Positions 10,310 through 56,330 are shown, numbered from the stretch's first letter. The stretch: DNA of 64,000 nt from Dictyostelium discoideum (GCA_000004695.1 CM000151.3:6848001-6912000); one strand, 5' to 3'. Numbers and translations are program-made. Notes: a model not told the origin generated them from the sequence alone.

Positions 10310-10405
10310 TAATAAGAATAATAAATAATAATAAAATTAATAATAAAAATAATAATAATAAGAATTTCAAAAAATAAAAAATTAAAAAAAAAAAATAGTT
10401 AAAAT

Positions 10406-10438
<33 letters not shown>

Positions 10439-10702: not shown

Positions 10703-10736
<34 letters not shown>

Positions 10737-15204: not shown

Positions 15205-15217
15205 GGGATTCGAACCT
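15205..15217 (-). promoter_or_regulatory. Extra B box (ex-B, GGTTCGAATCCCC) about 30-40 nt downstream of the tRNA-Lys gene.
   Basis: The minus strand reads GGTTCGAATCCCC, matching the RNA pol III B-box consensus GGTTCGANTCC. Dictyostelium tRNA genes commonly carry such ex-B boxes downstream. Confidence 0.5.
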
Positions 15218-15247
15218 TTGATCCACTTGTCATGATCTAAAAAATTT

Positions 15248-15320
15248 CGCCCAAAGGGGGGCTCGAACCCCCGACCACAAGGTTAAAAGCCTTGCGCTCT
15301 ACCGACTGAGCTATCTGGGC
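15248..15320 (-). tRNA. tRNA-Lys (anticodon UUU), 73 nt.
   Basis: Minus strand reads GCCCAGATAGCTCAGTCGGTAGAGCGCAAGGCTTTTAACCTTGTGGTCGGGGGTTCGAGCCCCCCTTTGGGCG. It folds as a cloverleaf: a 7-bp acceptor stem with one G-U pair, a D-arm (GCTC/GAGC), an anticodon loop CTTTTAA, and a T-arm (GGGGG TTCGAGC CCCCC). The A box (TAGCTCAGTCGG) and B box (GGTTCGAGCCC) are present. Confidence 0.9.
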
Positions 15321-15368
15321 TTTTTTGAAAATTTCATCTTTAGTACAAAATAAGGTAGATTTAATAAG

Positions 15369-16213
15369 TGGGAAGAGGAACTCAAAAACAACAACAACAA
15401 CAAAACAACAACAACAAAACAAAATCAACTACAACTACACTGGCAATGCGAGCAAGCATGGACCCAATTAAAAACTCCACAAAATAAACAAACACACTAC
15501 GAACACCTCCCAAAATTAAAAAAAATATACGAGGATATGATGACAACCCAATCTCCAGAACACAACAAATTCATACCAACTCCTGGCCAAAAAGAAATAA
15601 TGACCAAAATTAATAGCAAACACCTTCTATTTAAAGAAATCAAAAAAATAATAAACATGAAAGGTAGAGATCTATTATGGAGATACACACTGAAAGCACT
15701 ACCAAAAATATACAACATGCCATGCCAACAGTGTGGGGAAGATGAGACTTCAGAACATATATTCTTCAACTGCAAAGCCCACATCAAAAACACACAAGAA
15801 ATCTTCAACTACACCCTAACTAAGTGTGGACACACCACTCACACCTGGAATGTGAAGATTTTAAACCATCTACAAATCGCACTAGTAGCCAATTTAATAG
15901 CTATTATATTCGAAAAAATCTGGCACAAAAGAAATAAACTCATTCACGATGAAAAAGAAATAATAATTCACAGACAACAAGTCATACGTGAACTAATTAA
16001 AACACAAAGAGCTGCATGGGACAGGACACAAGCGGTTATAAACAAAACATTAAGAATCAAATCAAAGCAACGGCCAGAAGAACAAAATAAATTAGACTCA
16101 CTAATCTCGCTAAAGCTATTACAATTTAGCAGACAATGGAACTCACCTCTTCACGCAATAGAACTTCCTAAACATCTCAAAAAATACAATAATTCACTCA
16201 GTACCTTCTCTAA

Positions 16214-36500: not shown

Positions 36501-37324
36501 AAATGGTTCTGTTACTATTGTTTCTACAACCCAATCTGATGTTCTCCATATTATTAAACTTTTATCTTCTGATTGTGATGCCAAATATCTACCTAATGGG
36601 TCCCATGTTAAACCTTTAACAAATCCTTTATGTTCCTCCAATTTTGACACCATTTCTATTATAAAAATTTAAAAAAAAAAATTTTATTAAGTTAATACAT
36701 AGTATGTTGAATCTTTAAGATTAATATTAAAATAAAAATACTTACGAAACTTATTAGTTTCCCAAATTATTATTGATTTATCAAAACTACATGTTGCAAT
36801 ATATTTATTATCTGGAGACCAACTAACTTCAGAGATATCTGAAGCATGACCTCTCAATGTTGCAACGCAAACCCAATTTTCTGTTGTATTTTTGAGTAGT
36901 GAATTATTGTTTGATAAACCCCAAATCATACATAATTTATCATCAGAACCTGATGCTAAATATTTACCATCCTTTGACCATTTAACTGAATTGACTGAAT
37001 GGAAATGTGCGTTCTCTATTGAACATAATAATTTGGGTATTCCCGCATCTTCTTCAGCCTCCAATAATGATATTGGTGCCATGCTCCATATTTTTATCTT
37101 TGCATCACCACCACCAGTTGCAACTCTTGTGCCATCTGGATGTATATCAATTGAGTATATAGATAATCCTAAAAAAATTATTCAATTTATTTATTTATTT
37201 ATTATTAATTTTTTATTTTTTTAATTTTTTTATTTTATTTTTAAATTTTATATAGCCAAATAATAATAATATTATTATTATCTTACCTCCATGCGATACC
37301 CATTGTGGTTTGAGGATTTTCATT
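33531..37324 (-). CDS. hira: HIRA histone chaperone (WD-repeat histone cell cycle regulator) homolog. Five exons: 37288..37324, 36746..37168, 36466..36655, 34535..36305, 33531..34454.
   Basis: The N-terminus MKILKPQWVSHGG|LSIYSIDIHPDGTRVATGGGDAKIKIWSM...DGKYLASGSDDKLCMIWG...WSPDNKYIATCSFDKSIIIWETNKF|QMVSKLEEHKGFVKGLTWDPLGRYLASQSEDKSLIIWRTSDWVVET matches HIRA WD repeats 1-5 residue for residue. The C-terminus ...SSLEYKHWLLIYTKYLTNC..IVKLTDLCTDLLGP...PWESTILGLSKRSLLKEILPIMAGNRTLQRMVGQF matches the HIRA C-terminal domain. Introns are GTAAG/GTACG...(A/T)AG with consistent phases. Confidence 0.9.
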
Positions 37325-37339
37325 TATTATTATTTGTTT

Positions 37340-37390
<51 letters not shown>

Positions 37391-37615
37391 TTTAAAAATG
37401 AAATAATAATATAAAAATTATTTTTGAAAAAAAAAAAAAATTTTTAAAAAAAAAAAAAACAAATATCAATGAGAAACAAATACACAAAGTGTGTGCGTGT
37501 GTATATGTATAAAAGTTTGATGGGATTATTATTTAATTAAAAAAAAAAAAAAAATTTCAACAAATTATTTTTTTTTTCACTTTTTTTTATTTTTATTTAA
37601 AAAAATGTAGCGCAT

Positions 37616-37660
<45 letters not shown>

Positions 37661-37787
37661 CTACCGTAGTTCAGAAAGATTTCATAAAAAAAAAAAAAAA
37701 AGAAAAAAAAAAAAAACCAATTTTGTGTGTGTTTCCAATTATAGATTTTTGTTTTTTAAAAAATTTTTAAAAATAAACAAAAAAAAA

Positions 37788-38475
37788 ATGGAAAATACAG
37801 ACCATTCTTATAATCAACAACCTGTAAATAATAATGATGTTAGGGATTTATTATTTGAAAATTCACCACTCGACCAATATCTTCAATGTAAATTATTATC
37901 AATCATTAATTAATTACACTATTTAATGATAAATTAAAAAAAAAATAAAAAAATAAAAAAATAAAAAAAAATACAACTTATTAATAAAGTTTTATATTTA
38001 TACTTAAATAGCATTAAATTTAAAAGAAAATGAAGATAATAGAGGTGAAGTTTTATCATTTGAAATGTTTAGTCAAGAGAATATTGAAAATAATGAAGAA
38101 TATAATCAAATAAAATATGATAATAACAATAATAATGAAAAAAATAACGATAATAATAATACTTTTAAAAATAAAAATAATAAAAATAACAACATCAAAC
38201 TAAATAAAATTCAAATATTCTTCATGTCATTATACCAATCTATATCATCAATTATAATTGAATCAGATATTCTATTAGTACAAGAGTCACCATTTATCCA
38301 AAATCCTAATTTATCATTAAAAGATAATGATGATAATGATGATGATGAATCACCATTACCACCAATATATCCATTATCATTATACACCTTAGATAATGAT
38401 AACATATCAAATAATAATAATAATAATAAAGAATTATCATTAAATATTATTGAATTAATATCAATATTATATAAC

Positions 38476-38511
<36 letters not shown>

Positions 38512-40462
38512 TATATAATTATATTGATATCAATTTTAATTTTAATAATATCAATATTTTTAAATTTTAAATTAATAATTTTTATATTTTCAATATCATT
38601 AATAGTGATTATATTAATATTGAAAATTATAAATTCAAAGATTAAAGAGATTCAAAGAAATATTAAATCATTAGAAAAAGTTAATTTAGAATTAATTGAT
38701 GCTTGTAAGAATCATTATAATCAAATTAGTAAAACTATACAATTAATTAGAGAAGTTGAATTAATATCAAGAGGTTATAGATTATCAACACCAATAACTC
38801 CAATTGAAAGAATTGAACAATCCAATAATAGTGGTAATGGTACTAGCAATAGTTATAAATCTGAAAAATCATTTATTTTAAGAGCAAGTGTTTCAAAATC
38901 ATTAAAAACATTTATAATTTTATTTAAAAATTTAATTGAAAATCAAGCAATTTCTTTAAATTTACTTGAAAATCAAAAACAATTTATTAAATGTCAATTA
39001 TCAGAACTTTTCAATTCAAATAATAATAATAATAATATTGATGATGATGATGATGATGATGATATTAACACAAAAGAAAATCAAGAAGAAATAGAATTAG
39101 ATCAATTAGAAAATGATTCACAATTACCAATTGTAACATTAAAATTAATGTTACATCAATATGAATTCATGGTTTCAAATTTCTTTACTTTATTTATTAT
39201 ATCATTTTCAAATTTATTAAATAATAATAATAATTTTAATAGAAGTGATGGTATTATTACTACTAGTAACCTCTTTAATTTTTCAAATATAAATAATAAC
39301 ATTTGCCAATTTCAATCAATTCTATTAAAAATTTCAAATAGATTAACGATTGAAAATAATTCAATTAAATCTTTAATTTCAAAAGAATTATGGGAAAATA
39401 GTATAATATCATCATCATTATTGTTATTTCATTCCCCTAGTACAAAAAAAAAAAAAAAAAAAAAAAAAATACCTTTTACTAACTATTATCATTATTTTTT
39501 CATTTTTTAATTTAGAAATTCCAAAAAGAGTTATATTATCAAAACCAAAGAAAACAACTATTGAATCATTTATATATAATACTAATCAAATAGCAGAATC
39601 ATTAAATAGCATTAGTCCATTATTTACAAGTTTACTTGAAAAAATAGTTCCCTTAAAACAAAATAATAATCAAAATAATAATCAAAATAATAATAATAAT
39701 AACAACAATAATAATAGTGATTATGAATCATCATCATCATCATCATCTATAACAATACTTGATATTTTAAAATTAGATGAAGTTGTAAATGACTTTTTAT
39801 TAATTAAAAATGAATTAACAAACTCATTAAAGAATTGGGATAATGCAAATAGATCTTTAGTAAAGATGGTTAGAACTATACCAACAACAAATCCAAATTT
39901 ACAAAAAGAATGGACTGAACAAGAAGCAACTGAAAAATTAAAAAAACTATTAGAAAAATTAAGATCCAATCATTTTAATAATAATGATGATCATGATGAT
40001 CATGACGATGATGATCCTAATAATCAAAGACGACAAAAACAAAATGAATTAAATAAATTAATGACTTCAACTACAACAATCAATGAAAATCAATGGTTAA
40101 TTTATGAAGATACTGGTGACCTTGATCCAACATATATTGAAAGACCTCTAATTCAAATTAATGAAAATACAAATAGTGAACTATCAAATACAAATAATGA
40201 AACAACAACAATAATAATAACAAAACCACCCCCACCTCCACCACCAATGGGATTACCAAGAAGAACCAAACCTCCAAAAAGGACAATGTATGATCCTGAT
40301 TTTGATCCAATAACTCAAAAAATGAAAATATCTTCTGAAACTAGTACTCAAAATAATAATAAAAATAGTATTGCTGCTTCAATAATTCCACAAAAGAAAT
40401 TAATGAATGAACTTAAAACTGTTTTAGATATTCATGTCCTAAAAAAGAATATGCCAACTTAA
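37788..40462 (+). CDS. Hypothetical transmembrane, low-complexity protein, about 820 aa. Exons 37788..37887, 38012..39439, 39516..40462.
   Basis: A long open frame with poly-N/D tracts, a roughly 60-aa hydrophobic stretch (IIILISILILIISIFLNFKLIIFIFSISLIVIILILKII) and a heptad-like segment. The C-terminal exon has PPPPPPPMGLPRRTKPPKR. The exon 2/3 junction uses an atypical GTACAA donor across an A25 tract, so the join is uncertain. Exon 1 (MENTDHSYNQQPVNNNDVRDLLFENSPLDQYLQ) is also provisional. Confidence 0.5.
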
Positions 40463-40600
40463 TACCAAAAAATAATAATAAATTCAATCTTGGGTCTTTT
40501 TATTTTGTTTTAAAATTTTTTTTTTTTTTTATTTTTTCTTTATCATTATTTCTTTTTTTTCGTGAGAAAAAATTAATTCAAGACTTTTTTTTTTTTAAAT

Positions 40601-41363
40601 TTATTTATTTCTTTGAGTAACTCTTTTAGCAGCATTGACAATGTTTTGAGTTTGGACCATACTATATATTCGAAAAAAAAAAAAAAAAAATTAATAAATG
40701 TGAACCAAATGAATAATTAAAAAAAAAAAAAACAAATTAATACTTACGCAGCATTTTCCAAGTTTGAAGCATATGGCATTGGAACATCAGCACCACAAAT
40801 TCTTTCAATTGGGGCATCTAAATAATCAAAAGCATGTTCCATCATTAATGCAGAGATTTCAGCACCAATACCAGATTGTGCCCAACCTTCTTCAACGGTA
40901 ACTAATTTATTTGTTTTTTTGAGTGAATTTACAATGGTTTCAGCATCAATTGGACGAATGGTACGTAAATTGATAACTTCAGCAGAGATACCTTCTTTGG
41001 CAAGTATTTCAGCAGCTTCCATACAGTTACTAACGATTCTAGAGAAACCAACAATTGTAACATCTTTACCTTCTCTTTCAACTTTTGCTTTACCAATTGG
41101 AACAAGGTATTCTTTATCTTGTTCTTGATCTGATAAATCAAATTTATAATTGTAAAGTAATTCACTCTCTAAATAAACAACTGGATTATCATCACGAATT
41201 GCTGATTTTAATAAACCTCTATGATCAGCAGCACTCCATGGTGCAACAACTTTAAGACCTGGAACACTACCATACCATGCAGCAAAACACTAAATTAATA
41301 ATAATTATAATTATTAATTATTAGTATTTTTAATTTGAAAGAAGGAGGGGGAGAGAGAGAGAG

Positions 41364-41394
<31 letters not shown>

Positions 41395-42166
41395 TACTTG
41401 ACTGTGTTGAGCACCAACAGCAGTTGGTGGACCATTTGGACCTCTCCAAACGATTGGATTGAAAACTTTACCACCAGACATATAATGAGTTTTAGCAGAT
41501 GAATTGATGATGTGATCAATTGCTTGCATAGCAAAGTTGAAAGTCATAAATTCAATGATTGGTCTAGTACCTGCCATAGCAGCACCAACACCAATACCAG
41601 CAAAACCAGCTTCTGTAATTGGAGTATCAATAATTCTATCACCACCATATTTATCGAATAATCCTTTAGTGATCTTGTATGCACCATTATATTGAGCTAC
41701 TTCTTCACCCATAATAAAAACTTTTTCATCTCTTGCTAATTCTTCATCCAATGCACTATTAATTGCATCACGAACTGTAACCTATATATAAAATAAAATA
41801 ATTTATTAATTATTTTAATTTAACAATAATAATAATAATATAATAAATATAATAAAAATAATAAAAATAATAAAAATAATATAGTTTTTTATTTTATTTT
41901 ATTTTATTTTATTTTATTTTATTTTTTGACACTATGGTGGGGTTCATTGTGGATTTTATTTTTTATTTTATTTTATTTTATTTATTTTTTTTTTTTTTTT
42001 GTTTTTTATTTTTTTTTTATTTTTTTTTTTTTTATAAAATAAATAAATAAATTGAATACATATAAAAAAAAATTCAACGTACCTCTTTAGTAGCATAAGT
42101 TCTAGTGATAATTCTAAAGTTAACTAATAATGATGGTTGAATTTTTTTTAAAATTGAAGACAACAT
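40601..42166 (-). CDS. pdhB: Pyruvate dehydrogenase E1 component beta subunit, mitochondrial (PDHB). Four exons: 42083..42166, 41398..41781, 40748..41289, 40601..40661.
   Basis: Exon 1 is a mitochondrial presequence ([28 protein letters not shown]). The rest reads [93 protein letters not shown]...PIVWRGPNG...VGAQHSQ|[41 protein letters not shown]...[31 protein letters not shown]...PMPYA..LENAA|[16 protein letters not shown]. It is collinear with PDHB throughout. Confidence 0.9.
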
Positions 42167-42199
42167 TTTTGAATGATGATAAGTTAAAATTGTGATTTG

Positions 42200-42246
<47 letters not shown>

Positions 42247-43140
42247 AAGTCGCTGAAAAAATTGAAAAAAAAAAAAAAAAAAATTAATTTAAAATAAAAA
42301 AAATTAAAAAAAAATAAAAAAAAAAAACAATGTTAATTATTCATTCTTTTTTTGTTTTTTTGAATTGTTTTTCCCGATTGGATATTTAATAAACGAATTA
42401 ATTTCTTTTATAAGAGATATTATCTTTAAAGTTATAATAAATAAATTTTAATTTTTGTAAATTAATTAATTTTTATAAATTAATTATTTTTTTTTTTGTT
42501 TCTAAAAAAAAAAAGTTAATAGGATATTAATTTTAAAAGTGTTTAGAAAACAAAAAAAAAACAATAAAAAAGTCTTTAATGTAAAATTACTACCACCTAA
42601 TAAATAAATTTTGACATTTTATCATAAAAACATCAATGAAAATCGATCATATAAATAAAAATTAATTATTGGACAAGTTTGATAAATTCCAGATAAAATT
42701 AATACGACTTTACAAAAAATAAAAATAAAAGAATTATATTCAACTTTTATTTATTTAAAATAAAAGAAAAGAAAATAAACTTAAATTGTGTTTTTTATCC
42801 AATTCAATCAAAAGAACAAAAAATACACCCACTCCCCAATTACATTTTTATTTTTCCCAATTTTAATTTTATTTTTATTTTTTATTTTTTTATTTTTTAT
42901 TTTTTTATTATTTTTTTTTTTAAAAAATTTATTTATTATATTATTATATTATAATATTAAATTTTTTAGGTAATTAATTTAATATTAAATTTTAACTCTA
43001 CCCCAAAAATGTAACGTGTGCGCATAAATTTTCGTTTTTCATAAAAAAAAAAAAAAAAATCAAAAAAAAAAAAAATTTCAGGGTGACAAAAAATTTTTTG
43101 AAAAATTTTCTCATTCTTTCAGTTTAACATTTCCCCAAAC

Positions 43141-43920
43141 ATGTCATCCGTACGTATTTGCCGTCACATATTTTATAGATAGTGAAAGTAGAGGAGAAGA
43201 GAGAAAAGATTGAAACAATATGGTGACCATGTTGTTTATATAGTTGGATTGAAATAGATTGATACTATTTCATAATAGATTGAAGATAATATAGAATAGA
43301 GATTATGGTCCTCCATAGATACACATATACTAATCAAATCCAACAACAACAAATAAATATATTATTTATAGTCATTAGTTTTCCAAGGAGAATTCCAACA
43401 CATCATTCGTATTTACAATACCAATGTTGACGGTAGAAGAAAGATTCAATACGCTCTTACCTGTGTTAAAGGTGTTGGTCGTAGATTTGCCAATTTAGTC
43501 TGCAAAAAGGCTGATATTGATACCTCAAAAAGAGCTGGTGAACTTTCAAAAGATGAAGTCGAAAGATTAACCACCATCATGAATCACCCAAGACAATACA
43601 ATATCCCAACTTGGTTCCTTAACAGACAAAAGGATATTAAAGACGGTAAATACTCTCATTGTCTTGCCAATCAAATCGATGTCAAATTCAGAGAAGATTT
43701 AGAAAGATTAAAGAAAATCAGAGCACACAGAGGTGTCAGACATCACTTTGGTCTCCGTGTTAGAGGTCAAAAGACCAAAACCACCGGTATGTAACAAATA
43801 ACAAACAACAAAGCATAATAAATATAATCATAAACCAATAATAACATATACTAATATAATTAATTTTTAAAATTTATAGGTAGAAGAGGTCGTACTGTTG
43901 GTGTTGCTGGTCGTAGATAA
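43141..43920 (+). CDS. rps18: 40S ribosomal protein S18 (uS13). Exons 43141..43149 (ATG TCA TCC), 43372..43786, 43880..43920.
   Basis: [130 protein letters not shown]|[12 protein letters not shown] is collinear with eukaryotic RPS18. The 9-nt first exon is followed by GTACGT, and the last intron is GTATGT...TATAG. Confidence 0.9.
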
Positions 43921-45904
43921 ATTCGTTAAACCCATCATAATAAACTATTTTTTAGTAATATAGCATTAAGTGCGTTTTATTTATTTTAGTATTTTTTATT
44001 GAGTTAGAGGAATCAAAAATTATTATTATATTACTATTATTATTTTAAGTCAATAGTTTTTTAATTTAATTTTATTATAAATCTACAAATCTATATTTCA
44101 TCAATTAATTGGACATTATTCAATACAAATAAAAAAAATAAATGACAACATATATGAACTAAAAATAGAATTTTTTTTTTATATAAACACACCGATCCAA
44201 AAAAAGTGTGGTTAAAATTTAATAACAATATCTAGATTTAAATTTTTTTTTTTTTTTTTTTTTTTATATGTATACTAAAATAAATAAAAAACAAATATAT
44301 ATAAAAGAAATAATTATTTTTATAAATGACGATCATTTATTTTTTATTTGTTATTTATGTCAGTAAAAAATGTTTTGAGAGAAATTTTTTTTTTTTTTTT
44401 TTTATACATACTAACCAAACTTTAAATCAGATTCTACATAAACTAATGTTATAAAAAAAAAAAAAAAAAACAAAAATGAAAAGATATTGGATTTAAATAA
44501 CTGCGAAATAGATTTAAATCAATGAAGTTTTAATAATATCCAAGACCAAACATATGCATAAAAAAAAAATTAAAAAAAAAAAAAAAAAAAAAAAAATTAT
44601 TAAAAATTTATTATTATTTTATTCCAGCTTGTATTTAATTTCCAAGGCAAGAGAATAAAATTTCTATTAATATTCATTAATTTTTTTTTATTTTTTTAAA
44701 GATTTATTAAGAAATACTAAATACTTTATAATGGTTTAATTATTATTTTATTTTTTTTTTTTTTTTTGATTTCATTTTTGATCATGTGATCCAATGAATC
44801 AATATAAAAAAAAATAAAAAAAAAAAAAAATAAAATATTTTAATAAAAATAAAATATTTTGGTTAGTGGTGGGTGTTGATATCAACATTTTACTTTTTAA
44901 AAATCAAAAACCTATTTTTAATGTCAATTGCAACATTAACTAATTACAAATTCTTTCATTAATTCCGAATATTATTAAATATTTTCTTTGAAAACAAAAA
45001 AAAAAAAAGAATAAAAAAACAAAGAGTATTTTATAAAATTGTTTTACATATTTTATATTTTAGTTTTTTTTTTTTTATTTAATTTTTTTTTTTTTTTATT
45101 TTATTTTTATATAGTTTTATTTAATAATTTACGAAAACATATTCTCTTCATTTTAAAATATAAATAATGATATATAGTAAGTTGTAGAAAAAAAAAAAAA
45201 AAAAAAATGAAATTAATAAAAAATATTTTGTTATTTATTTATTAACAATTATTTAATTTAAATTATTTCAGAATCAATGGTTTTTAAATATTATAAATGT
45301 GAATCATGTAATTCAAATCATATAGAATCAGGTTCATCTCATTCAATAAATTATTGTTTGGATTTAAATTCAAGTAAAATTTATAGAAATCTAACATGTA
45401 CATCATTTTTTACTCGCCCAATTTTCCAATCTTTTTAAATATTAGGTCAACACTGAATTTCTTGAAAAAAAAAAAACAAATAAAATAAAAAATCCATCAA
45501 ATGAAAAAACAATTGAACATATATTCCGAAATCAAAATAAGATTAAAAAATTTCAAATTGTTAGATTTTATTTATATTTTTTAAAAAATATTAAAACAAA
45601 CAATTAATAAATTATTTTCATTTTATTTTGCTATTAAAAAAATCATTTATTTCTAAAATTGTTTTTTGAGAAATTAGAATTAAAAAAAAAAAAAGAAAAA
45701 CCCCACAAACAAAAATAATAAAATTAATTCTGGTTAGTCGACACATAATGAAAATAAAACTAATTCTGGTGAGTCAACATTTTGAAAATAAAATTAATTT
45801 ATTTTTAATAAAAAAAAGATTTTTCAATTCTTTTTTTTCTTCATTATTCAAGACGAAAATTGACCATCTTCATCAAAAAAAAAAAATTTAATTTAATTTT
45901 TTTT

Positions 45905-46440
45905 TTGGTAGTGAATGGGGCATAAGATCAGTGAATTTATTTGATTTTCATTTAAAATATCATCCTGAAAGAATACAAACCTATATTAGAGCAGCATTTG
46001 GCTCAATCTTCCTATATTATCATCCAAAATTTATTATTAAGGTTTTAAAATTTTTAGAAGAGTCTATCAATCATAATAAACCATTTACTTTAACTATAAG
46101 TGAAAGAAATTATTTCATTATTAAATATTTAGATAGTTATAAATATAATGAAGAATTGTTTTAAAATGATATTGAATAATCCGATATCACCAACTTCAAT
46201 ATTTCGAAATATCCAAATTTTTAAGAAATTTTCAAGTGTAGATACAAGAATGGGTGTATATAGTTATTTAACTTATAAAAAATTACTCCCTTTTGGATTT
46301 AATAGTATTCGAACATCATTTTATTACCGTAATGAAAGTTCATACGAACCTAAATTAACTTTCTAAAAACAATAATAAAGTATAAAAATAAAACAATAAA
46401 TTATATACACAAATATTAAAAAATTCTTTTGGTAATAAAA
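45905..46440 (+). pseudogene. Truncated, frame-disrupted copy of the 5' part of the 1615-aa gene at 49934..54781 (equivalent to about residues 90-245), fused directly to a copy of that gene's 3' flank.
   Basis: It splits into two frame-shifted ORFs: 45931..46164 (LFDFHLKYHPE.IQT...HPK.IIKVL.F..ESINHNKP.TLT..ERNYFI) and 46148..46366 (NPISPTSIF.N.....LPFGFN.I.TSF). These are about 80% identical at nucleotide level to 50270..50720. The end at 46350..46440 (CTAAATTAACTTTCTAAAAA.AATAA..TATAAAAATAAAACAATA) matches 54850..54905 downstream of the intact gene. Confidence 0.6.
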
Positions 46441-46914
46441 AGGTTATTTAATAATTTTTTTTATTTTTTTTTATTTATTATTTTTATCATTTTATTATTT
46501 AATTAAATGGATGTGAATTGAATGTTTTTTTTTTTTTTTTATTGGTGCATGAGAGAAAAAAAAAAAAAAAAATTAAAATAAAAAAATAAAAATAAAAACA
46601 TGGGTGTTTTGAGATATTATTAAATTTGATTTTTTTTTTTTTTTTTTTTTAATTTTTTTATTTTTTTTATTTTTAATAAATAAACTTTGTTTTTAAATGG
46701 TTGAATAATAGAAATAGAAATTGATTTAAAAAAACTAATTAAAATCATATCTTTTTTGTATTTATTTATATTTTTTTTTTTTTTTTTTAATTTCCAAGGA
46801 TTTAATTATTAATTTATTTTAATTTCCATTTAGTATGGATAAACAGAAAACTCAAAAATATACAAAATGATATAGAATTTTAAAAAAATAAAAATAATCA
46901 TTCTTTTTTATAAT

Positions 46915-46954
<40 letters not shown>

Positions 46955-47351
46955 ATAAAAAAGTTTATTTTTAGAATTTAATTATTTATCATTCAATTTT
47001 TTGTAAAAATATTTAGTGTGTTGGTTTTAACATTTTTTATAATTTTATATTATTTTGTTATATTTCTGTTTTATATTATATTATTTTTATTTTTTAATTA
47101 GCTATTTATGAAACAAATTCTTCATTTCAATTATTCAAATTTTAAATATAATTATATTTATATATTATAAGCATATTGAAATTAATAGATATGAAAAAAA
47201 TTATTGTGAATAACATATATTTTTTTCTTTTACTATTTTTTTAAAATAAAATATATCACGAATCGTGTAATCCATCATAAAATCAGATTCATCTCATTCA
47301 ATAAATATTTTTTGAATCTAAATTCAATTAAAATCATAGAAATCAAACATA

Positions 47352-47387
<36 letters not shown>

Positions 47388-48050
47388 AAATTAAATAAAA
47401 TAATAAAATATATAATCAATCTATTATTCATTTTTAAAATTTCAAATGGTTATAAATTATTAAAAATATTTTTTAAATAAACTCTAGCAACCAATCTTTT
47501 AAATATTTAATTAAATTATTTTCAACCAGTGTTTAAATTTTTTTTTTTATAATTTATTTCTCATCCCATAGGAATCTAATCTATTACTATTTTTACTATT
47601 TTTATTTGATCCATTTATTAAAACACATATATTATATATATATAAATTATTTTTTATTTTTTATTTTAATTTTTTAACTATAAAATGTAATCAAAAAAAA
47701 AATTAATTAAAATAAAAACCAAAAACTGTCTTAAACAAAGCTATAAAAAATGATATTTAGTAAGGTTTTTTTTTTTATAAAATTGTTTTTTTTAATAGGT
47801 TTATTAACAAACTATTTTTCTTTTAGAAAATTTAATTTCAATATCATTAAAATCAAATTCGTCTCAAAATGGAATTAATAAAAAAGAAATGTCTTCAACA
47901 TCTCAGTCTCAAAATTTATCATTAAAATCAAATGGAATTTTATATTATAGACCACATTTTAATAATTATTAAGTTATAAAAAATTAATTCCATGATTTGT
48001 TTACCAACTATCTCAAGGGAGAATTAAATGAAATTTAATTTGTTCAGAAG

Positions 48051-48083
<33 letters not shown>

Positions 48084-48152
48084 AAAAAAAAATCCAATCG
48101 ATCAATTTTACATTTTAGTTTAAGATAAATTTAATTTTATTTAAAATTTAAG

Positions 48153-48195
<43 letters not shown>

Positions 48196-48343
48196 ATTAA
48201 AAAAACGTTTTTGTTTAATAAAAATAAAATTTAAAAACTGATTAACAAAAAATTTTTTTTTTTTTTAAATTTTAATTTTTTTTAATTTTTTTTAATCCGA
48301 TTTTTTCAGATATTTTTTTTTTTTTATTTTTATTTTTTTTTTT

Positions 48344-48374
<31 letters not shown>

Positions 48375-48380
48375 GAAAGA

Positions 48381-49085
48381 ATGGAGACTAAATTAAATTT
48401 TGATGAAGCTATAAATAAAATTGACAAGATATTGAAACTTGGTCAACTTTTTAATGTAGTCGGAGGAGATATCTTTTTCTGTATTTGTAGTACTAGTAAT
48501 TCCGATGTAAATAATATTGATAAACAAGAAAATAATGATAACGGTAATAGTGATAATAAATTTGATGAGCAAGTATGCAAACGTTTTGAAAATAATTTTA
48601 ATACCAGATTTACAAATATGGTAATCAATATAAAAACTAAACCAGTTAGAGTTGAATTTATTGGTAATTGTGATTCAAAATCAACCGAATTAGAAATAAT
48701 TAAATATTATCGTTCAAATCCAAATTTTATTAATTTAGTAGATTATGAAAATAATAGTTCAACCTCTTCAAATGAAAATAATAGATATATTCATATTCGT
48801 CTTTATTCATTACCAAAAGAATGGTCAATGACATATGTTTGTGAAAAATCTTTTGAACATTCCCATACCCACACTCATGAACAAGGTCATGGTCATCATC
48901 ACAATCACCATCATAATCAGAATGATCATCACCATCACCACCATAATGATCTTGACCCTTCCCATCACCATCACCACCACCATGAGGATGATCATTCTCA
49001 TGAACATGGACATTCCCACTCTCATACTCACACCCATACTCACCCAGGCTCAGAAGAAACCTATCAATGTATGAATTTCCATTGA
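48381..49085 (+). CDS. Histidine-rich protein, 234 aa, single exon, a candidate metal-binding protein.
   Basis: A roughly 165-aa N-terminal domain (METKLNFDEAINKIDKILKLGQLFNVVGGDIFFCICSTS...YVCEKSFEHSH) is followed by a 65-aa tail that is over 50% His (HTHTHEQGHGHHHNHHHNQNDHHHHHHNDLDPSHHHHHHHEDDHSHEHGHSHSHTHTHTH). Confidence 0.7.
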   Translation: METKLNFDEAINKIDKILKLGQLFNVVGGDIFFCICSTSNSDVNNIDKQENNDNGNSDNKFDEQVCKRFENNFNTRFTNMVINIKTKPVRVEFIGNCDSKSTELEIIKYYRSNPNFINLVDYENNSSTSSNENNRYIHIRLYSLPKEWSMTYVCEKSFEHSHTHTHEQGHGHHHNHHHNQNDHHHHHHNDLDPSHHHHHHHEDDHSHEHGHSHSHTHTHTHPGSEETYQCMNFH

Positions 49086-49247
49086 TAATAATTAGTGTTT
49101 AACTTTATCAAGAAATTTTTTTTTTTCCAAGGATATTGGAAAATAAAAGAATAAAAAATTAAAAAATAAAGATTGAAGGGTTATTATTATTTCGTATTTT
49201 ATTTATTTGTATTTATTAATTTTTCACCTCAATTACATAAATTGAAC

Positions 49248-49283
<36 letters not shown>

Positions 49284-49369
49284 CTAAAAATAGAAAAAAA
49301 AAAAAAAATCTGTATAATAATGTTCATGATATCAAATATTTTTCATTGAAATTTAATTCTTATTAATTT

Positions 49370-49640
49370 GAAGATTGAAAGAAAAAAAGACTATTTCTTG
49401 GATGTCCAAAACAAAAATTCATTTTATTTTTTTTATTTTTTTATTTTAATTTTTTTAATTTTTCTTTTTTCATTTTTTTTTTTTTTTAAAACAAAACTTA
49501 AATAAAAATAATAAATAATCAAAGAATTGGATGAGTACTTCAAACCATTATCACTTCAAATTGTTATTTGTAAGAAAATAATAATAAATAATCAAAGAAT
49601 TGGATGGGTACTTCAAACCATTATCACATTTAAATCTTTG
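49370..49640 (+). repeat. Duplicated copy of the promoter and 5'-leader of the 1615-aa gene (compare 49790..49933). In the copy the ATG region is replaced by two tandem copies of a body-derived segment (GGATGRGTACTTCAAACCATTATCAC, compare 54634..54660 and 52898..52920).
   Basis: Direct repeats seen by eye. GATTTCTTGGAT(G/A)TCCAAAACAAAAATT...AAATAAAAATAATAAATAAT occurs at both 49385..49530 and 49800..49935. Confidence 0.55.
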
Positions 49641-49746
49641 TTATCTGTCCCAAAATTACCATAATAATTTCAGCCTAAAAACGGGTTGTTTATGCATGCT
49701 TAAATTGATATGGTAATTTTGGGACAGATAACAAAGATTTAAATGT
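49626..49746. repeat. Perfect 38-bp inverted repeat (ACATTTAAATCTTTGTTATCTGTCCCAAAATTACCATA / TATGGTAATTTTGGGACAGATAACAAAGATTTAAATGT) with a 45-bp GC-containing spacer. It could be a foldback or MITE-like element, or a hairpin RNA.
   Basis: Arms at 49626..49663 and 49709..49746 are exact reverse complements. The spacer is ATAATTTCAGCCTAAAAACGGGTTGTTTATGCATGCTTAAATTGA. Confidence 0.8.
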
Positions 49747-49933
49747 AGAGCTTTTATTTTTTTCTATTTCTAAATAAGTTGGTATGAATTTTGAAAATCA
49801 AAAGAAAAAAACACGATTTCTTGGATATCCAAAACAAAAATTTTTTTTTTTTTAATTTTTTTATTTTTTCATTTTTTTTTTATTTTTTTTTTTCTTTTAA
49901 ACAAAATATAAATAAAAATAATAAATAATTATA

Positions 49934-52900
49934 ATGAATAATGAATATAATGAATTATTATTTTGGAAAGTTTTTAAAAATAATTATTTATTAAATTGTA
50001 TATTAAAAAATAAATGTTGTTATAAAAGTAAAAAATTTAAAACTATTACATCAATAGATTCAATGTTAAAACATAAACAATATCAACTGTTGATATGTAA
50101 ATTAAAAGCAGATGAAAATTTGTATTTTAAAGGAAAATATGGAAATGATGAGATCATTAATAGAATAGAAGATATAGAAGTATTCAAAGAGATATATTCA
50201 TTATTACTCTTTAAAGGTTATCAAGATACTAGGGATCATCGTATTTTATTCGATAGTATTTGGGGTATAAAATCAGTAGATTTATTTGATTTTCATTTAA
50301 AATATCATCCAGAAGAATTACAAACCCATATTACAACATCCATATACTCAATCTTGGTATATAATCATCCAAAATTAATAATAAAGGTTTTAAATTTTTT
50401 TAAAGAGTCCATCAATCATAATAAACCAATAACTTTAACCAAAAATGAAAGAAATTATTTCATTATGGAATATTTATATTATTGTAGATATGGAAGAAAT
50501 ATTGAAGAATTGAAAGAAAAGATGAAAATGATATGGAATATTCCAATATCGTCAACCTCAATATTTCATAATTCAGAAAAAAGAGTTCCAAGTGCGAATG
50601 TAGGTTGTTTTCTAAAATATCAAAAATTATTACCTTTTGGATTTAATAATATTCAAACATCATTTGATTGCTCTAAAGAAAATCCAAGGAGTTATTCTTC
50701 TATTGGTGATAGGCGGGGAGATGAAAATAATCAACGTTCTGTTTATAGCATAAATCATTTAAATATGTTTTCAAGTTTTTGTTATGACTTTGATGATAGT
50801 ATTTGCGAGTACATAAAAGATGTTAAAGGAAATTTTGAGTGTATCTCTTCATCTATCAAATCAGTTTTATTATATTTTAAATTGTATTATTGCAACTATG
50901 ATTATAAAAGTAAATCAAAAAGTATACCAACATCGATTCAAACTCAAATTGATATAATAATTGAAAATAGTAAACATAGACGTTGTACTGTATATCAATC
51001 AATTAAACAATTATTTCAACTATTAGCCATTGAATCAAAATCAATTGTTTTATATGCATTTTATTTAAAAGAATATAATGAACCAATTGATACCATTGAA
51101 CTTAGTGAAGAAATTCAATTATTGTTAATATATTACATGATAAAAACCTATAACACCAATATATTAAAGTTTCTATTGAAAAAACATTTAAAAATCAAAT
51201 TAACAAAATTAGATTTGGACTATATTGGTGAATCATATCTCAAATTTTTATTTAAAAGTAAACAAATTAATAAAAACAATATTATTATGTTCTACAAAAA
51301 CTACACATCACAAAAATCAATCATTATAGAAGATTTAGATGAAAAACCACTAGATGATGCAATATCAACAAAGGAACTTATTGATTTGGACAATAAACGA
51401 TTACATTCAATTCTAGGTAATGAATCATCATCGAAATGGAAAGAAATTACATCAAATATAATTGATAATGATATGATTGTTACAATTAAAGATAAAGAAA
51501 CAATCGATTGGTTATCAGATATAGAAACAGGTGGTGGTTGTAGTATTTTAAAAATAAGAGATGCTTTAAATTCAAAATTAAAACAAATGAAACTTGATTT
51601 TAGTACATTGGAATTATTAGAATATGCAAGAATCAAATTTAAACAAGTAATTCCAATTTTAGATTTAAATAAAGAGTTGTGTAATATCCACATTTTACGT
51701 ACTCATGATGATATTGAATCATTAATCAATCGTTTAAACCAATCAAACTTTAATAACAATGAAAATTTATTTAAATATTATATGATTCAAATAATTCAAT
51801 TTGGTTCAAGAAATTCAATGAAATACCTAAGATTAATTTGTGATTCTATTGACGAGTTATTAATGGACTATGAAGGTTGGGTAATTTTAGATGACACTTT
51901 AAGAAGGTTTTATATTAACTCATACCTAATAGAAGGAGAGATATGGGACAATTCAGTAGGTTATCATGAAAATAAAAAGTTCAAAGAATACAAAATACCA
52001 ACTCAACAAACATGTCAAATAATCAATCTCACCAAAATTAAAGTCAATTTCAATCACTTTCCAAATGTAACTTCTTATTTATTACAAACATTTATCGAAC
52101 TTTTAAATTTTGAAGGTGTTCAGTTTATTCTTGATAATTTAAATGGTAAAAATTTAAAATTAAATGAAAAAGCATTTAAAGATCGTTTTCATGATAGAAT
52201 CTATACATGCAAATATTTATATAAAGATTTGATTGAAATGATTCAATTTTTAATTAATAAATTCAAAGATGGTCAATTATCATTATCAAATTTATCATTG
52301 ATATTAAATTTCTTATTTTCAATGTTAATTAGAGTCAATGATTTAACAAATGATCAAATCAAAACAGCTTATCAATCAATATCAAACTATATTGAAATAG
52401 ATAGTTCAGAACTCAATTCATACTATTATTTAAAAACATTATCACCCATTATTTCATCATGTATTATCATTTTTAGAGATAATGGTGGTGGTGATGTTAG
52501 ACCATTACTTGAATATCATATAGATACATCAGTATATACATTCGAACATATATTTACAAATAGAAATAATAACGATCTGAACCAATTTATCGATTCAACA
52601 ATCATGGATATTGTAAAAGATCGTTTTTATTCTAATTTAAACAAAATGTTAGATAACAATAATCCAAGAATTAATTTATTTTTACATTATTTCGAAATTC
52701 AATTAAAATACAAAAATGAAAATGATTTCAAAGGACCATTTTTAAATTATAAACTATTGAAATTAATAATTAAAACATTTGATTTAGAATCATTTATTAA
52801 ATTAGATAGTTTATTAGAGAACCATAATGGTAATTGTGAGCAAGAGGGTTCAAATAACAGGATTTTAAGCGAATTAGAGAAATTTTATTTTAATTGGAAA

Positions 52901-54781
52901 AAACCATTATCATCTAATATGGTTGAATGGTTTGGTATAATTGTATACAAAGATTATTCAGATTATCAAGATATTATAAATTACTTATTTAATAAATATA
53001 AACACCAATTGGAACCATATATAATTTACTATAAATTAAAAATAAATAATAAATCAATAACTAATAATCAGTTACATTCAATTTTATGTAATAAATCATC
53101 ATCGAAATGGAAAGAAATTACATCGAATCTAATTGGTAAGGCCGCTGCTACAATTAAAGATAAAGAAACAATCGATTGGTTATCAGATATAGAAACAGGT
53201 GGTTGTAGTAATTTAAAAATAAGAGATGCTTTACATTCAAGATTAAATCATATGGAACTTGATTTTAGTTCATTGGAATTATTAGAGTATGCAAGAATCA
53301 AATTTAAACAAATCATTTCAATTTTCGATTTATGTGATGAGTTTTTCGAAATTCATATTTTACATACTCATGATGAAATTGAATCATTAATCAATCGTTT
53401 AAACCAATCAAACTTTAATGAAAATGAAGATTTATTTAAAAATTATATGATTCAAATAATTGAATTTGGTTCAAGACTTTCAGCTAAACACATAAGATCA
53501 ATCTTTAAATCATTGGAATATGGCGTTGACAAGTCATCATTGGGAAATGATAATTATAAAGAGTGGAAGTATTTAATAAACAAAGTTTTCAAATACGAGT
53601 ATAGAAGGTTTTTTGATAACCCCTCATACATCCATGAAGAATATTTTTTGGGCCAAATACTACGTGATCATAAAAACGAAGAATACAAAGAATACAATAT
53701 ACCAACTCGACAAGAATCTCAAATAATCAATCTTTCTAAAATTAAAGTCAATTTCAATCACTTTGCAAATGTAACTTCTTATTTATTTCAAGGATCCATC
53801 GAACTTTTAAATTTTGAAGGTGTTCAATTTATTCTTGATAATTTAAATGGTAAAGATTTAAAATTAAATGAAAAAGCATTTAAAGATCATTTTCATGATA
53901 GAATCTATTCATGCGAATATGTTTCTAAAGATTTATATGATACCATTCAATTTTTAATTGAAAAATTCGAAGATGGTCAATTATCACTATCAAATCTATC
54001 ATTGATATTAAATTACTTATTTTCCAAGTTAATTAGAGTCAATGATTTAACAATTGATCAAATCAACATATCTCATCAATTAATATCAAACTATATTGAA
54101 ATAGATAGTTCAAAATACAATTCATACTATTATTTAAAAATATTATCACCAATTATTGAATCATGTATTACCGTTATCGAAGGTCCTACAAGTGATGATG
54201 AAGATGGTAATGGAAAACCAAGACCATTCTGTCATTATGATATAGATACATCAGTATATACATTCGAACACATATTTACAAATAGAAATAATAACGATCA
54301 GAACCAATTTATCGATTCAACAATCATGGATATTGTAAAAGATAATTTTACAATTGAAATATTTTCCAAAATGTTAGATAATAATAATCCAAGAATTAAT
54401 TTATTTTTACATTATTTCGAAATGGAATTAAAAAAAAGAAAAACAAGTAATGATTTCGAAAATGTATTTTTAGAATTTGAACAATTGAAATTAATAATTA
54501 AAACATTTGATTTAGAATCATTTATTAAATTTGAATATTTATTACAACAATATCAATTCTACTTATCACCTGATATCGATGAATGGTCAGATATAAACAA
54601 AGAGTATGCAAATGATCAAGAGGATATAAATGATGGGTACGTCAAACCATTATCATCTAATTTGGTTGAATGGTTTGGTAAAATTTCATTCATATATTAT
54701 CCAGATTATCCAGATATTCTTAATTACTTATTTGATAAATATAAAAACCAATTCGAACCATATACTAATTATATAAATTAA
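49934..54781 (+). CDS. Large hypothetical protein, 1615 aa, single exon. It has a roughly 480-aa N-terminal region followed by two tandem copies, each about 560 aa, of a repeat unit.
   Basis: An uninterrupted ORF. Residues about 488-1050 and 1050-1615 are about 75% identical. Examples: HSILGNESSSKWKEITSNII...KDKETIDWLSDIETGGGCSILKIRDALNSKL vs HSILCNKSSSKWKEITSNLI...KDKETIDWLSDIETGGCSNLKIRDALHSRL. Both units end KPLSSN.VEWFG...DY.DI.NYLF.KYK.Q.EPY. I recognise no known domain. Confidence 0.8.
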   Translation: MNNEYNELLFWKVFKNNYLLNCILKNKCCYKSKKFKTITSIDSMLKHKQYQLLICKLKADENLYFKGKYGNDEIINRIEDIEVFKEIYSLLLFKGYQDTRDHRILFDSIWGIKSVDLFDFHLKYHPEELQTHITTSIYSILVYNHPKLIIKVLNFFKESINHNKPITLTKNERNYFIMEYLYYCRYGRNIEELKEKMKMIWNIPISSTSIFHNSEKRVPSANVGCFLKYQKLLPFGFNNIQTSFDCSKENPRSYSSIGDRRGDENNQRSVYSINHLNMFSSFCYDFDDSICEYIKDVKGNFECISSSIKSVLLYFKLYYCNYDYKSKSKSIPTSIQTQIDIIIENSKHRRCTVYQSIKQLFQLLAIESKSIVLYAFYLKEYNEPIDTIELSEEIQLLLIYYMIKTYNTNILKFLLKKHLKIKLTKLDLDYIGESYLKFLFKSKQINKNNIIMFYKNYTSQKSIIIEDLDEKPLDDAISTKELIDLDNKRLHSILGNESSSKWKEITSNIIDNDMIVTIKDKETIDWLSDIETGGGCSILKIRDALNSKLKQMKLDFSTLELLEYARIKFKQVIPILDLNKELCNIHILRTHDDIESLINRLNQSNFNNNENLFKYYMIQIIQFGSRNSMKYLRLICDSIDELLMDYEGWVILDDTLRRFYINSYLIEGEIWDNSVGYHENKKFKEYKIPTQQTCQIINLTKIKVNFNHFPNVTSYLLQTFIELLNFEGVQFILDNLNGKNLKLNEKAFKDRFHDRIYTCKYLYKDLIEMIQFLINKFKDGQLSLSNLSLILNFLFSMLIRVNDLTNDQIKTAYQSISNYIEIDSSELNSYYYLKTLSPIISSCIIIFRDNGGGDVRPLLEYHIDTSVYTFEHIFTNRNNNDLNQFIDSTIMDIVKDRFYSNLNKMLDNNNPRINLFLHYFEIQLKYKNENDFKGPFLNYKLLKLIIKTFDLESFIKLDSLLENHNGNCEQEGSNNRILSELEKFYFNWKKPLSSNMVEWFGIIVYKDYSDYQDIINYLFNKYKHQLEPYIIYYKLKINNKSITNNQLHSILCNKSSSKWKEITSNLIGKAAATIKDKETIDWLSDIETGGCSNLKIRDALHSRLNHMELDFSSLELLEYARIKFKQIISIFDLCDEFFEIHILHTHDEIESLINRLNQSNFNENEDLFKNYMIQIIEFGSRLSAKHIRSIFKSLEYGVDKSSLGNDNYKEWKYLINKVFKYEYRRFFDNPSYIHEEYFLGQILRDHKNEEYKEYNIPTRQESQIINLSKIKVNFNHFANVTSYLFQGSIELLNFEGVQFILDNLNGKDLKLNEKAFKDHFHDRIYSCEYVSKDLYDTIQFLIEKFEDGQLSLSNLSLILNYLFSKLIRVNDLTIDQINISHQLISNYIEIDSSKYNSYYYLKILSPIIESCITVIEGPTSDDEDGNGKPRPFCHYDIDTSVYTFEHIFTNRNNNDQNQFIDSTIMDIVKDNFTIEIFSKMLDNNNPRINLFLHYFEMELKKRKTSNDFENVFLEFEQLKLIIKTFDLESFIKFEYLLQQYQFYLSPDIDEWSDINKEYANDQEDINDGYVKPLSSNLVEWFGKISFIYYPDYPDILNYLFDKYKNQFEPYTNYIN

Positions 54782-54980
54782 AACTTTCAATTCAAAAATT
54801 CAATTACTGCTATTAGTTAAAATCTTTTCACATAAAATCAATATTGTTCTAAATTAACTTTCTAAAAAAATAAAATTATAAAAATAAAACAATATATTTA
54901 CACAAAAAAAAAAACCAAAAAAAAAAAAAAAAAATTATTACTCTTTGTTCCAATTACTTGTGGTAGTTGTTGTTTGATTT

Positions 54981-55014
<34 letters not shown>

Positions 55015-55065
55015 TGTTTTTTGGAACCAATAGACAGAGATAAAAGATCTCCTCAAAAAAATGGG

Positions 55066-55100
<35 letters not shown>

Positions 55101-55294
55101 CATTTCCTTATTTTTTACATTTATTTGAGAAATACAATTTTTTTTTGCTGGATGTTCATCACAAGGTGGCGAAAAAAAAAAAAAATAAAATAAAATAAAC
55201 AAAAAAAAAAAAAAATTCGAAAAATACAAAAAAATTTTTTTTTTTTTTTTTTTTTTATTTTCATCATCATTTTTTAAAACTCAACATACAAAAC

Positions 55295-55895
55295 ATGCAA
55301 TCAGTAGACCCACAAGTTGTCGGCGTAGGAAAACAATTCGTTGAGCATTATTATGGTATTTTTGACTCAAATCGTGCAGGTTTAACCCAAATCTATGTAG
55401 GTTTTTTTTTTTTTTTTTTTTTTAATTCCTATTTTTCTATTTTTATTTTTTCCCAAAATATTTACTAATTCTTTTATTTTATAAAACCCACCCAAACTAA
55501 AAATAAATAAAAATAATAAAAAATAAAAAAATAAAGCAACAACAAACAACTTTAACATGGGAAGGTAAATTTTTATCAGGTGCTGACGCAATTGTTAAGC
55601 ATATTGTTGAATTACCATTCCAACAAACCAATAGAAAAATCAATAGTATTGATTGTCAACAAACTTATCAACCAGGTATTATGATCACCGTCACTGGTAC
55701 TCTTATTGTAGGTTTTATTTATTTTCACAATATTTGTTATTAAAAGTAATAAATTATTAATACTATTATTATTATAAAATATAGATTGATGGTGAAGCTA
55801 AAAATCAATTAAAATTCGTTCAAGTCTTCAATCTTGCTTCAAATAATGGTTCATTCTTATTAATTAATGACTTTTTCCGTTTGGTTTTAGATTAA
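55295..55895 (+). CDS. Nuclear transport factor 2 (NTF2), 127 aa. Exons 55295..55396, 55537..55707, 55785..55895.
   Basis: MQSVDPQVVGVGKQFVEHYYGIFDSNRAGLTQIY|QQQTTLTWEGKFLSGADAIVKHIVELPFQQTNRKINSIDCQQTYQPGIMITVTGTLI|IDGEAKNQLKFVQVFNLASNNGSFLLINDFFRLVLD is collinear with NTF2 (F.QHYY..FD..R..L..IY...S.LTWEG....G...I...L..LPFQ........D.Q....), including the DMFRL-like C-terminus. Both introns start GTAGGT. Confidence 0.88.
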
Positions 55896-56330
55896 TCTAA
55901 ATAGGAATTTGTAAAAATATAATAAAAAAAAAAAAAAAAAAATATATATATAAAAAAAAAAAAACAAAACCAACTTATAAATTAGATAATAAAAAAAAAA
56001 AAAAAAAAAGAAATTATATGAATTTAAAAATTTTTTTTTTTTTTTTTTAACGGAATTATTGCTTTTTTATTCTTTAAAGGAATTTAATCAAAGTTTTTAT
56101 ATATAGAATTATAATTGTGGATCAGTTTTTCTTGTTTTTTTTTTTTTTTTTTCCCACAAAATTAAACAACAAATTTAATATAATCATTAATATAAATAAA
56201 ATAAAAACATGGAAAAAAAATGTAATAAAACATTGGAACCATATGAATTTTTGTATTTTTTATTCTTTTACATTTTTTTTATTTTTTATTTTGTATCATT
56301 TTCTTAATTTATGTTTTTTTATTCATTGTT

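Follow-up and report, generated by a model that had tools for sequence, protein, structure and literature searches.

The window analysed here, a 64,000-nucleotide stretch of Dictyostelium discoideum DNA, has a G+C content of about 21% and carries long A and T runs between its open reading frames (ORFs). It contains an intact gene, DDB_G0276559 (49934..54781, + strand), whose 1615-residue product matches an AX4 chromosome 2 protein (P0001 in our protein set) at 100%. Upstream of this gene lies a single-exon gene of 234 codons (48381..49085, +), which we used as a synteny anchor and divergence control, and beyond that, at 45899-46599 on the + strand, lies the relic that is our subject: a coding segment (45899..46352) adjoining a 3' untranslated region (UTR) and flank (46351..46599). 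DDB_G0276559 is the downstream tandem paralog of the relic. The C-terminus of the 234-aa protein is strikingly His-rich (HSHTHTHEQGHGHHHNHHHN...HHHHHHH...HSHSHTHTHTH). The sole tRNA or Rfam match within the window is a tRNA-Lys(UUU) at 15248-15320 on the minus strand; Rfam and tRNA scans returned nothing at or near the relic.

We compared the window with the corresponding regions of other assemblies: L001 (ACTFIR, GCA_054859385.1), L002 (ACTFIT, GCA_054883475.1), L003 (ACTFIW) and, from assemblies labelled 'cf. discoideum', L004 (ACTFIZ) and L005 (ACTFIY). The 234-aa gene is found as 233 or 234 aa in L001, L002, L003 and L005. Holland et al. (PNAS 2025; PRJNA1300491; PMC12745789) have described long-read genomes for D. 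discoideum and for possible cryptic species, and the assemblies compared here probably, by inference, stem from that work.

Pairwise alignment of 45899-46337 with 50244-50681 gave 347 identical columns out of 458 (75.8%, with 39 gap columns); for the same pair BLASTN reported 74.8% identity (E 1.6e-84), the target being codons ~104-249 of DDB_G0276559 (ORF 49934..54781). The original prediction, which had put this match at about 80% identity to codons ~90-245, was near the mark, though slightly generous on both counts. At the protein level (tblastn), the relic matches DDB_G0276559 at 68% over aa 107-181 in frame 1 and at 51% over aa 190-244 in frame 2. Because the match is split over two frames, the fragment is frameshifted, as had been predicted, and the ORFs at 45931..46164 and 46148..46366 are its two halves.

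Thirteen bases after the coding match ends, a second match begins, between 46350-46423 and 54849-54914 (63/74 columns, 85%), with a target that starts 68 bp beyond the DDB_G0276559 stop codon. Since the background is AT-rich, we scored the flank query against 632 tile-by-strand comparisons (400-bp tiles over the window, both strands). The flank pair had the top score, 89, with a runner-up of 64 and a median of 29, and the reverse search returned the same pair, making it reciprocal best within the window. The 20-mer CTAAATTAACTTTCTAAAAA and the 18-mer TATAAAAATAAAACAATA, which are collinear, each occur within the window at these two flank sites only. Both alignments lie above 60% identity, and it is confirmed that the similarity of coding segment and flank exceeds chance and extends beyond low-complexity sequence.

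A homology search returned 29 related proteins, of which 22 are 1009-1101 aa long. D. discoideum and D. cf. discoideum account for all of them; no homologue from elsewhere was detected in this database search. The relic matches all 29 of these proteins (P0001-P0029) by blastx, with E values from 1e-66 (P0020) to 8e-11 (P0029), and its ORF is disabled, which bears out the view that it is a pseudogene fragment of the DDB_G0276559 family. The search for further members, also proposed at the outset, gives five intact genes in AX4 (DDB_G0276559, G0271218, G0276409, G0276403, G0276401), and in the literature searched we found no paper naming any of these five gene IDs. Neither P0001, P0020 nor the 234-aa neighbour contains a Pfam domain; a sub-threshold match to RuvB_C (E 0.013) was dismissed. 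An AlphaFold2 model of P0020, built on a 24-sequence family alignment, is all-alpha at low confidence (mean pLDDT 53, pTM 0.37).

The family differs in both number and architecture among the assemblies. Counted as 90% clusters, its distinct sequences number 5 in AX4, at least 9 each in ACTFIR and ACTFIW, at least 4 in ACTFIZ and at least 2 in ACTFIY, and many of the genes lie in adjacent locus-tag runs (e.g. ACTFIW_004465-004470, ACTFIR_006377-006388). In DDB_G0276559 a standard unit is followed by a second copy of the C-terminal ~575 residues, 64% identical to the first; BLASTP after splitting the protein, our method for mapping internal repeats, pairs aa 1042-1613 with aa 485-1032 (window 53057-54775 and 51386-53029). 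Its intact orthologues lie at L001 16486-21465, L003 16517-22558 and L004 10001-14452. Elsewhere, the counterparts at this position are 1630, 1973, 1483 and 1122 aa long, with a different repeat make-up in each, and ACTFIZ_010125 (2046 aa) is a fusion of two nearly complete units. The architecture of the family is under reshuffling by unequal exchange or deletion. In ACTFIR there is also ~1.5 kb of extra sequence between the large family gene and NTF2, including a called gene of 187 aa that matches Cpn60_TCP1 (L001 22014-22685, minus strand; AX4 position ~54950-55057). It is missing from AX4 and ACTFIT and probably represents a further gene fragment or indel of the strain-specific kind.

The closest relative of the relic (45880-46440) by blastx is ACTFIR_006388 (P0020, 1100 aa), matched at 87% and 78% in two frames over aa 106-258. 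Every other family member, DDB_G0276559 included (68%, 51%), reaches at most 68%, and DDB_G0276559 is no nearer to the relic than several other paralogs. ACTFIW_004453 (1107 aa) falls in the same 90% cluster as ACTFIR_006388, and both genes are intact and stand between the S13 gene and the 233-aa gene (L001 10001-13303 and L003 10001-13324, respectively). The gene order in L001 is PDH-E1-beta-like, ribosomal S13, 1100-aa gene, 233-aa gene, 1630-aa family gene and NTF2. The window has the same order, except that the relic stands in place of the 1100-aa gene; L003 likewise agrees, with its 1107-aa gene in that place.

Aligned to L001 by BLASTN, the window falls into blocks. Positions 36086-45906 correspond to L001 1-9810 (89.5%), the relic coding block 45899-46352 (+) to 10314-10766 (93.2% over 454 columns, with one 1-bp gap), the relic 3' flank 46351-46599 (+) to 13343-13600 (86.6% over 268 columns) and 46985-49267 to 13650-15991 (88.3%). 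Blocks and breakpoints are the same against L003, where the relic is 93.0% identical to 10314-10766 and the flank 89.6% identical to 13364-13624; the syntenic flanks of AX4 are 88-90% identical to those of ACTFIR and ACTFIW. With P0020 and P0030 as tblastn queries, no other pieces of the ancestral gene were found in the window. Visualizing the relationships as a neighbour-joining tree (150 shared residues, computed without bootstrap), we observed that the relic is sister to ACTFIR_006388 and ACTFIW_004453, in a deep clade apart from that of DDB_G0276559.

The contrast between 93% and 76% identity is by itself decisive in settling parentage, and the AX4 relic is thus the remnant of the orthologue of ACTFIR_006388 and ACTFIW_004453, not a recent copy of DDB_G0276559. 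The original prediction correctly derived the fragment from a full-length gene once in tandem with the 1615-aa gene, a gene whose intact syntenic form survives as ACTFIR_006388 and ACTFIW_004453, but its choice of the 1615-aa gene as parent does not hold: identity to DDB_G0276559 is 76%, against 93.2% and 93.0% to the two orthologues, and the tree sets the lineages in separate deep clades.

The resemblance between the two 3' flanks concerns a motif, TTAAAATCT... through TAAATTAACTTTC...ATAAAAATAAAACAATA, that is common to the 3' ends of ACTFIR_006388, ACTFIW_004453, DDB_G0276559 and ACTFIW_004451. The copy behind DDB_G0276559 lies at 54849..54914 (+; 63/74 to the relic flank), and the relic keeps a paralogous copy of its own from TAAATTAAC onward. 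As four genes carry the motif at their 3' ends, the old tandem duplication included the 3' UTR, and the likeness of the relic to DDB_G0276559 and to its 3' flank is evidently one of older paralogy. The flank had been described as a copy of the sequence that follows the DDB_G0276559 stop codon; it fits instead its orthologous flank, over at least 250 bp, and the likeness to the former is that of a paralogous 3' UTR.

Relative to the intact homologue, the relic carries two deletions and a frameshift. The 5' deletion, which comes in addition to what had been predicted, corresponds to L001 9811-10313 (503 bp) and comprises 190 bp of upstream sequence, the ATG and codons 1-104. Its junction (45899..45906, +) lies in a T-run, where the left synteny block and the relic block overlap by 8 bp, and TTTTATTT is present at both edges of the deletion in the intact allele; tblastn found no trace of aa 1-108 of P0020 in the window. 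No full-length ORF of ~1000-1100 codons remains: the coding segment at 45899..46352 (+) represents codons 105-256 of the ancestral ~1100-aa gene and is split by the +1 frameshift at 46156..46164 (+). There the relic has one extra T (GAATTGTTTT versus GAA-TGGTTT), directly followed by an in-frame TAA (46162-46164). No other gap interrupts the alignment with the intact orthologue, and the sequence is unchanged in the independent assembly L002. Of the two ORF halves (both +), the first, 45931..46164, ends at the frameshift, and the second, 46148..46366, in the next frame, has an ATG start, encodes 72 aa and follows the ancestral frame.

The 3' deletion corresponds to L001 10767-13342 (2576 bp) and took away codons 257-1100 together with the stop codon (13301-13303) and the first 39 bp of 3' flank. 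At its junction (46351..46352, +) codon 256 now abuts the 3' UTR of the same gene, so that, as had been proposed, an internal deletion did bring an early part of the coding sequence up against the 3' flank of the ancestral gene itself. The extent of the loss is nevertheless 2576 bp, and not the ~4.3 kb put forward earlier, the ancestor being a member of the usual 1100-aa type that lacked the additional C-terminal repeat of DDB_G0276559. The breakpoints read ...GAACC[TA]TTTTATC and ...TTGTTA[TA]AATTAAC in L001 and ...GAACCTAAATTAAC in AX4, joined as ...GAACC-TA-AATTAAC...; the 2-bp TA microhomology is not beyond chance in a genome of 79% A+T.

We made several further observations around the relic. 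Between 46600 and 46985, AX4 and ACTFIT contain ~330 bp of AT-rich sequence that is absent from the ACTFIR/ACTFIW interval (633 versus 307 bp between anchors). Compared with the deleted gene segment, it gave low-complexity matches alone, and we ruled it out as a leftover of that segment. Just upstream of the relic, at 45722-45790, is an imperfect tandem duplication of ~33 bp (AATAAAATTAATTCTGGTTAGTCGACA / AATAAAACTAATTCTGGTGAGTCAACA), which is single-copy in ACTFIR. The AX4-specific CCCCACAA immediately before it may resemble the Dictyostelium ncRNA upstream element; Rfam found no RNA at CCCCACAA or at 45722-45790. Finally, a weak direct similarity brackets the relic (45042-45400 versus 47026-47353; ~69%, E 4e-24, low-complexity filtered), and a corresponding one brackets the intact gene in ACTFIR (L001 8970-9335 versus 13707-14092). 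These may be the edges of an old tandem duplication unit, or may be a resemblance between AT-rich intergenic sequences.

The ACTFIT region, L002, is collinear with window 39874-56000 (16 kb, 99.38% identity), and between 45899 and 46440, both junctions included, its relic agrees with that of AX4 at every base. Zero differences in 542 bp are not unusual at ~0.4% divergence, and the flanks differ slightly. From this identity it follows that the relic is not an artefact of the AX4 assembly and that its structure is older than the split between AX4 and ACTFIT. In the two 'cf. discoideum' assemblies, L004 (ACTFIZ) and L005 (ACTFIY), neither gene nor relic is present between the S13 and 233-aa genes. 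Because the 6388 lineage branches deeply in the tree, an independent complete loss is the most likely cause of this absence, and it is possible that the gene was inserted at the site later, in the discoideum lineage.

Synonymous divergence between the AX4 and the ACTFIR/ACTFIW lineages is 0.068 for the 234-aa gene and ~0.09 for the large gene, and the dS between the two paralog lineages is 0.26-0.32. As the latter is so much larger than the former, the duplication is several-fold older than the lineage split. The derived nonsynonymous load of the relic, approximately that of a neutral branch as old as the split, suggests, with small numbers, that the gene was inactivated soon after it. The recent birth-and-death dynamics originally proposed therefore stand in part: the family gains and loses genes from strain to strain, and the "death" postdates the split from the ACTFIR/ACTFIW lineage, but the "birth" does not, the dS between the paralogs (0.26-0.32) being old beside that of the lineages (0.07-0.09).

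Rates of protein change proved a poor guide to whether the relic is dead. Its pairwise dN/dS (NG86) against the intact orthologues is 1.03 (ACTFIR) and 0.87 (ACTFIW), values that are not diagnostic because intact family orthologues give ~0.7-1.35. Between AX4 and ACTFIR/ACTFIW, the first ~470 codons of the DDB_G0276559 orthologues have a dN/dS of 1.33-1.35 (dS ~0.09, dN ~0.12; NG86), and against the ACTFIZ orthologue the ratio is 0.68-0.83 (NG86); in a Fisher test these family values do not depart significantly from 1 (P 0.26-0.30), and with AT-biased codons NG86 is a crude estimator. The 234-aa gene, by comparison, is strongly conserved, with a dN/dS of 0.08 at dS 0.068 for AX4 versus ACTFIR and of 0.05-0.12 across comparisons. 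Family ORFs of 1000-2000 codons remain open in a genome of 79% A+T, and a dN/dS near 1 in the family could mean either diversifying selection or very weak constraint.

Given that intact orthologues are also near 1, we dropped dN/dS as a pseudogene test and polarised the changes against the paralogs instead. Among the 24 amino-acid differences between the relic and the intact gene, with the other 29 members as outgroup, 14 are derived on the relic branch, 3 on the intact branch and 7 are ambiguous (14 versus 3, binomial P = 0.013). Several of those derived in the relic strike nearly invariant positions, where 25-28 outgroup members agree (L->F, D->N, L->I, N->Y and L->F), and one, I->N, strikes a position invariant across all 29. 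Such a 14:3 excess on the relic branch indicates that its constraint has been relaxed. The 150 retained codons contain no in-frame stop, frameshift aside; in simulation this outcome has P = 0.22 under ~15 neutral substitutions, and we rejected it as a sign of function. The loss of the promoter, the start codon and 86% of the coding sequence, together with the 14:3 excess, supports a non-functional relic, and an exact-sequence look-up gave no gene model on record with the 72-aa ORF product. We infer that the relic probably retains no function.

Homology, synteny and breakpoints were observed directly, as was the surplus of derived changes in the relic, and we consider it very likely that 45899-46599 is a non-processed pseudogene, the remnant of a ~1100-aa orphan-family gene destroyed in the AX4 lineage by three lesions. 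The ancestral gene would have stood in tandem ~3 kb upstream of DDB_G0276559, with the 234-aa gene between them. One lesion, the 503-bp deletion with its T-rich junction, would have taken upstream sequence together with the start codon and codons 1-104, presumably through slippage or microhomology-mediated repair between T-rich runs. Another, the 2576-bp deletion that begins at codon 257 and ends 39 bp beyond the stop codon, would have joined codon 256 to the 3' UTR, presumably by end joining with minimal TA homology. The +1 frameshift would complete the set.

One competing history is the one first proposed, in which a recent full tandem copy of DDB_G0276559 lost ~4.3 kb. The alignments from which it started are real (75.8% to codons 104-249 of DDB_G0276559 and 63/74 to its 3' flank), but such a recent derivative should have DDB_G0276559 as its nearest relative and lack codons ~250-1615, and the relic does not show this pattern. 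An intact syntenic gene of only 1100-1107 aa is 93% identical to it, several paralogs are as close to it as DDB_G0276559 is, and the tree parts the two lineages deeply. The paralog dS of 0.26-0.32 also far exceeds the lineage dS of 0.07-0.09, and the extra C-terminal repeat of DDB_G0276559 is missing from P0020; we regard this history as very improbable. No more credible is a locus that was never full-length, whether the relic arose here by partial duplication or transposition or the gene was rebuilt in ACTFIR and ACTFIW by insertion or gene conversion. Two cf. discoideum assemblies that are empty at the site, and a polarity of presence and absence that is not fully settled across the clade, speak for it. 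Both pieces of the relic are nonetheless collinear with one intact gene, with orthologous flanks continuous on either side, and that gene is homologous end to end with ~30 paralogs and is the sister of the relic in the tree. Building a 3.3-kb ORF around a 453-bp fragment is, moreover, far less parsimonious than two deletions.

Turning from origin to function, the relic might still act through the 72-aa product, as a transcript or regulator, or as a gene-conversion donor to intact members. An ATG-initiated ORF (46148-46366) does survive in the ancestral frame, there are no additional stop codons and the relic is identical in AX4 and ACTFIT; elsewhere in the genus, pseudogene fragments have been put forward as donors for recombination into the tgr genes (PMC12745789). 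The promoter region and start codon are deleted, however, the 72-aa product has no recorded gene model, and derived replacements have struck invariant or nearly invariant family positions. The absence of stops and the identity between AX4 and ACTFIT both lie within neutral expectation, and no conversion tract to DDB_G0276559 is seen, the identity being even at ~76%. A function of any of these kinds seems to us quite unlikely, if somewhat less so than either of the alternative histories above. Regions of the Dictyostelium genome that are AT-rich and bear repeats are hard to assemble, which would count in favour of a collapsed or mis-joined AX4 reference. Yet ACTFIT has the identical relic with both junctions, and provided that AX4 did not guide the scaffolding or polishing of that assembly, an assembly artefact is so improbable as to be negligible.

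If the relic is indeed a non-processed pseudogene, the two short ORFs at 45931-46366 should not be annotated as genes, and the interval calls for a pseudogene label that names ACTFIR_006388 as its orthologue. The death of a gene in an orphan family of Dictyostelium would then be fully resolved here, in a case in which both breakpoints, ancestral allele and polarity are known and in which the dying gene was an old paralog and not a fresh duplicate. We stress that the relic in itself carries little weight and that its value lies chiefly in annotation. The more interesting lead is the family, which is clade-restricted and domain-less, and which keeps long ORFs and a strain-variable architecture under near-neutral or faster protein evolution. 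Conceivably, though we think it improbable, the relic is a casualty of diversifying or conflict-type selection on an uncharacterised discoideum-clade family of large, predicted all-alpha proteins. Such a reading would agree with four observations: long ORFs that stay open, dN/dS of ~0.7-1.35, differing gene counts, and fusions, duplications and deletions. If it were true, dead fragments could serve as recombination donors to live copies, as has been proposed for tgr.

Among known kinds of element, the relic recalls a processed pseudogene in that a truncated coding copy lies beside 3'-UTR sequence. Unlike processed pseudogenes, it occupies an orthologous position with continuous flanks, has no poly(A) tract after the UTR, and lacks an internal part rather than showing the 5' truncation of a cDNA; with its syntenic site, orthologous intergenic flank and internal deletion, we rejected this class. 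The nearest described parallel is to be found in the same genus, in the fragments and pseudogenes of the tgr genes, for which gain, fragmentation and loss have been described (PMC12745789). In contrast to tgr, the family of the relic has no TIG or other Pfam domain, lies outside the tgr locus and is predicted, at low confidence, to be all-alpha. With the non-processed pseudogenes of birth-and-death tandem families the relic shares functional homologues, a tandem array, deletions and a frameshift, an intact syntenic orthologue in relatives and an excess of derived changes on the dead branch. Its particulars are that two separate deletions are involved, the 3' one ending within the gene's own 3' UTR, and that its parent family lies near a dN/dS of 1, so that the usual dN/dS test for pseudogenes does not discriminate; nothing essential differs. 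The relic is a non-processed pseudogene of an ordinary sort, a record of gene loss in a family that is changing fast.
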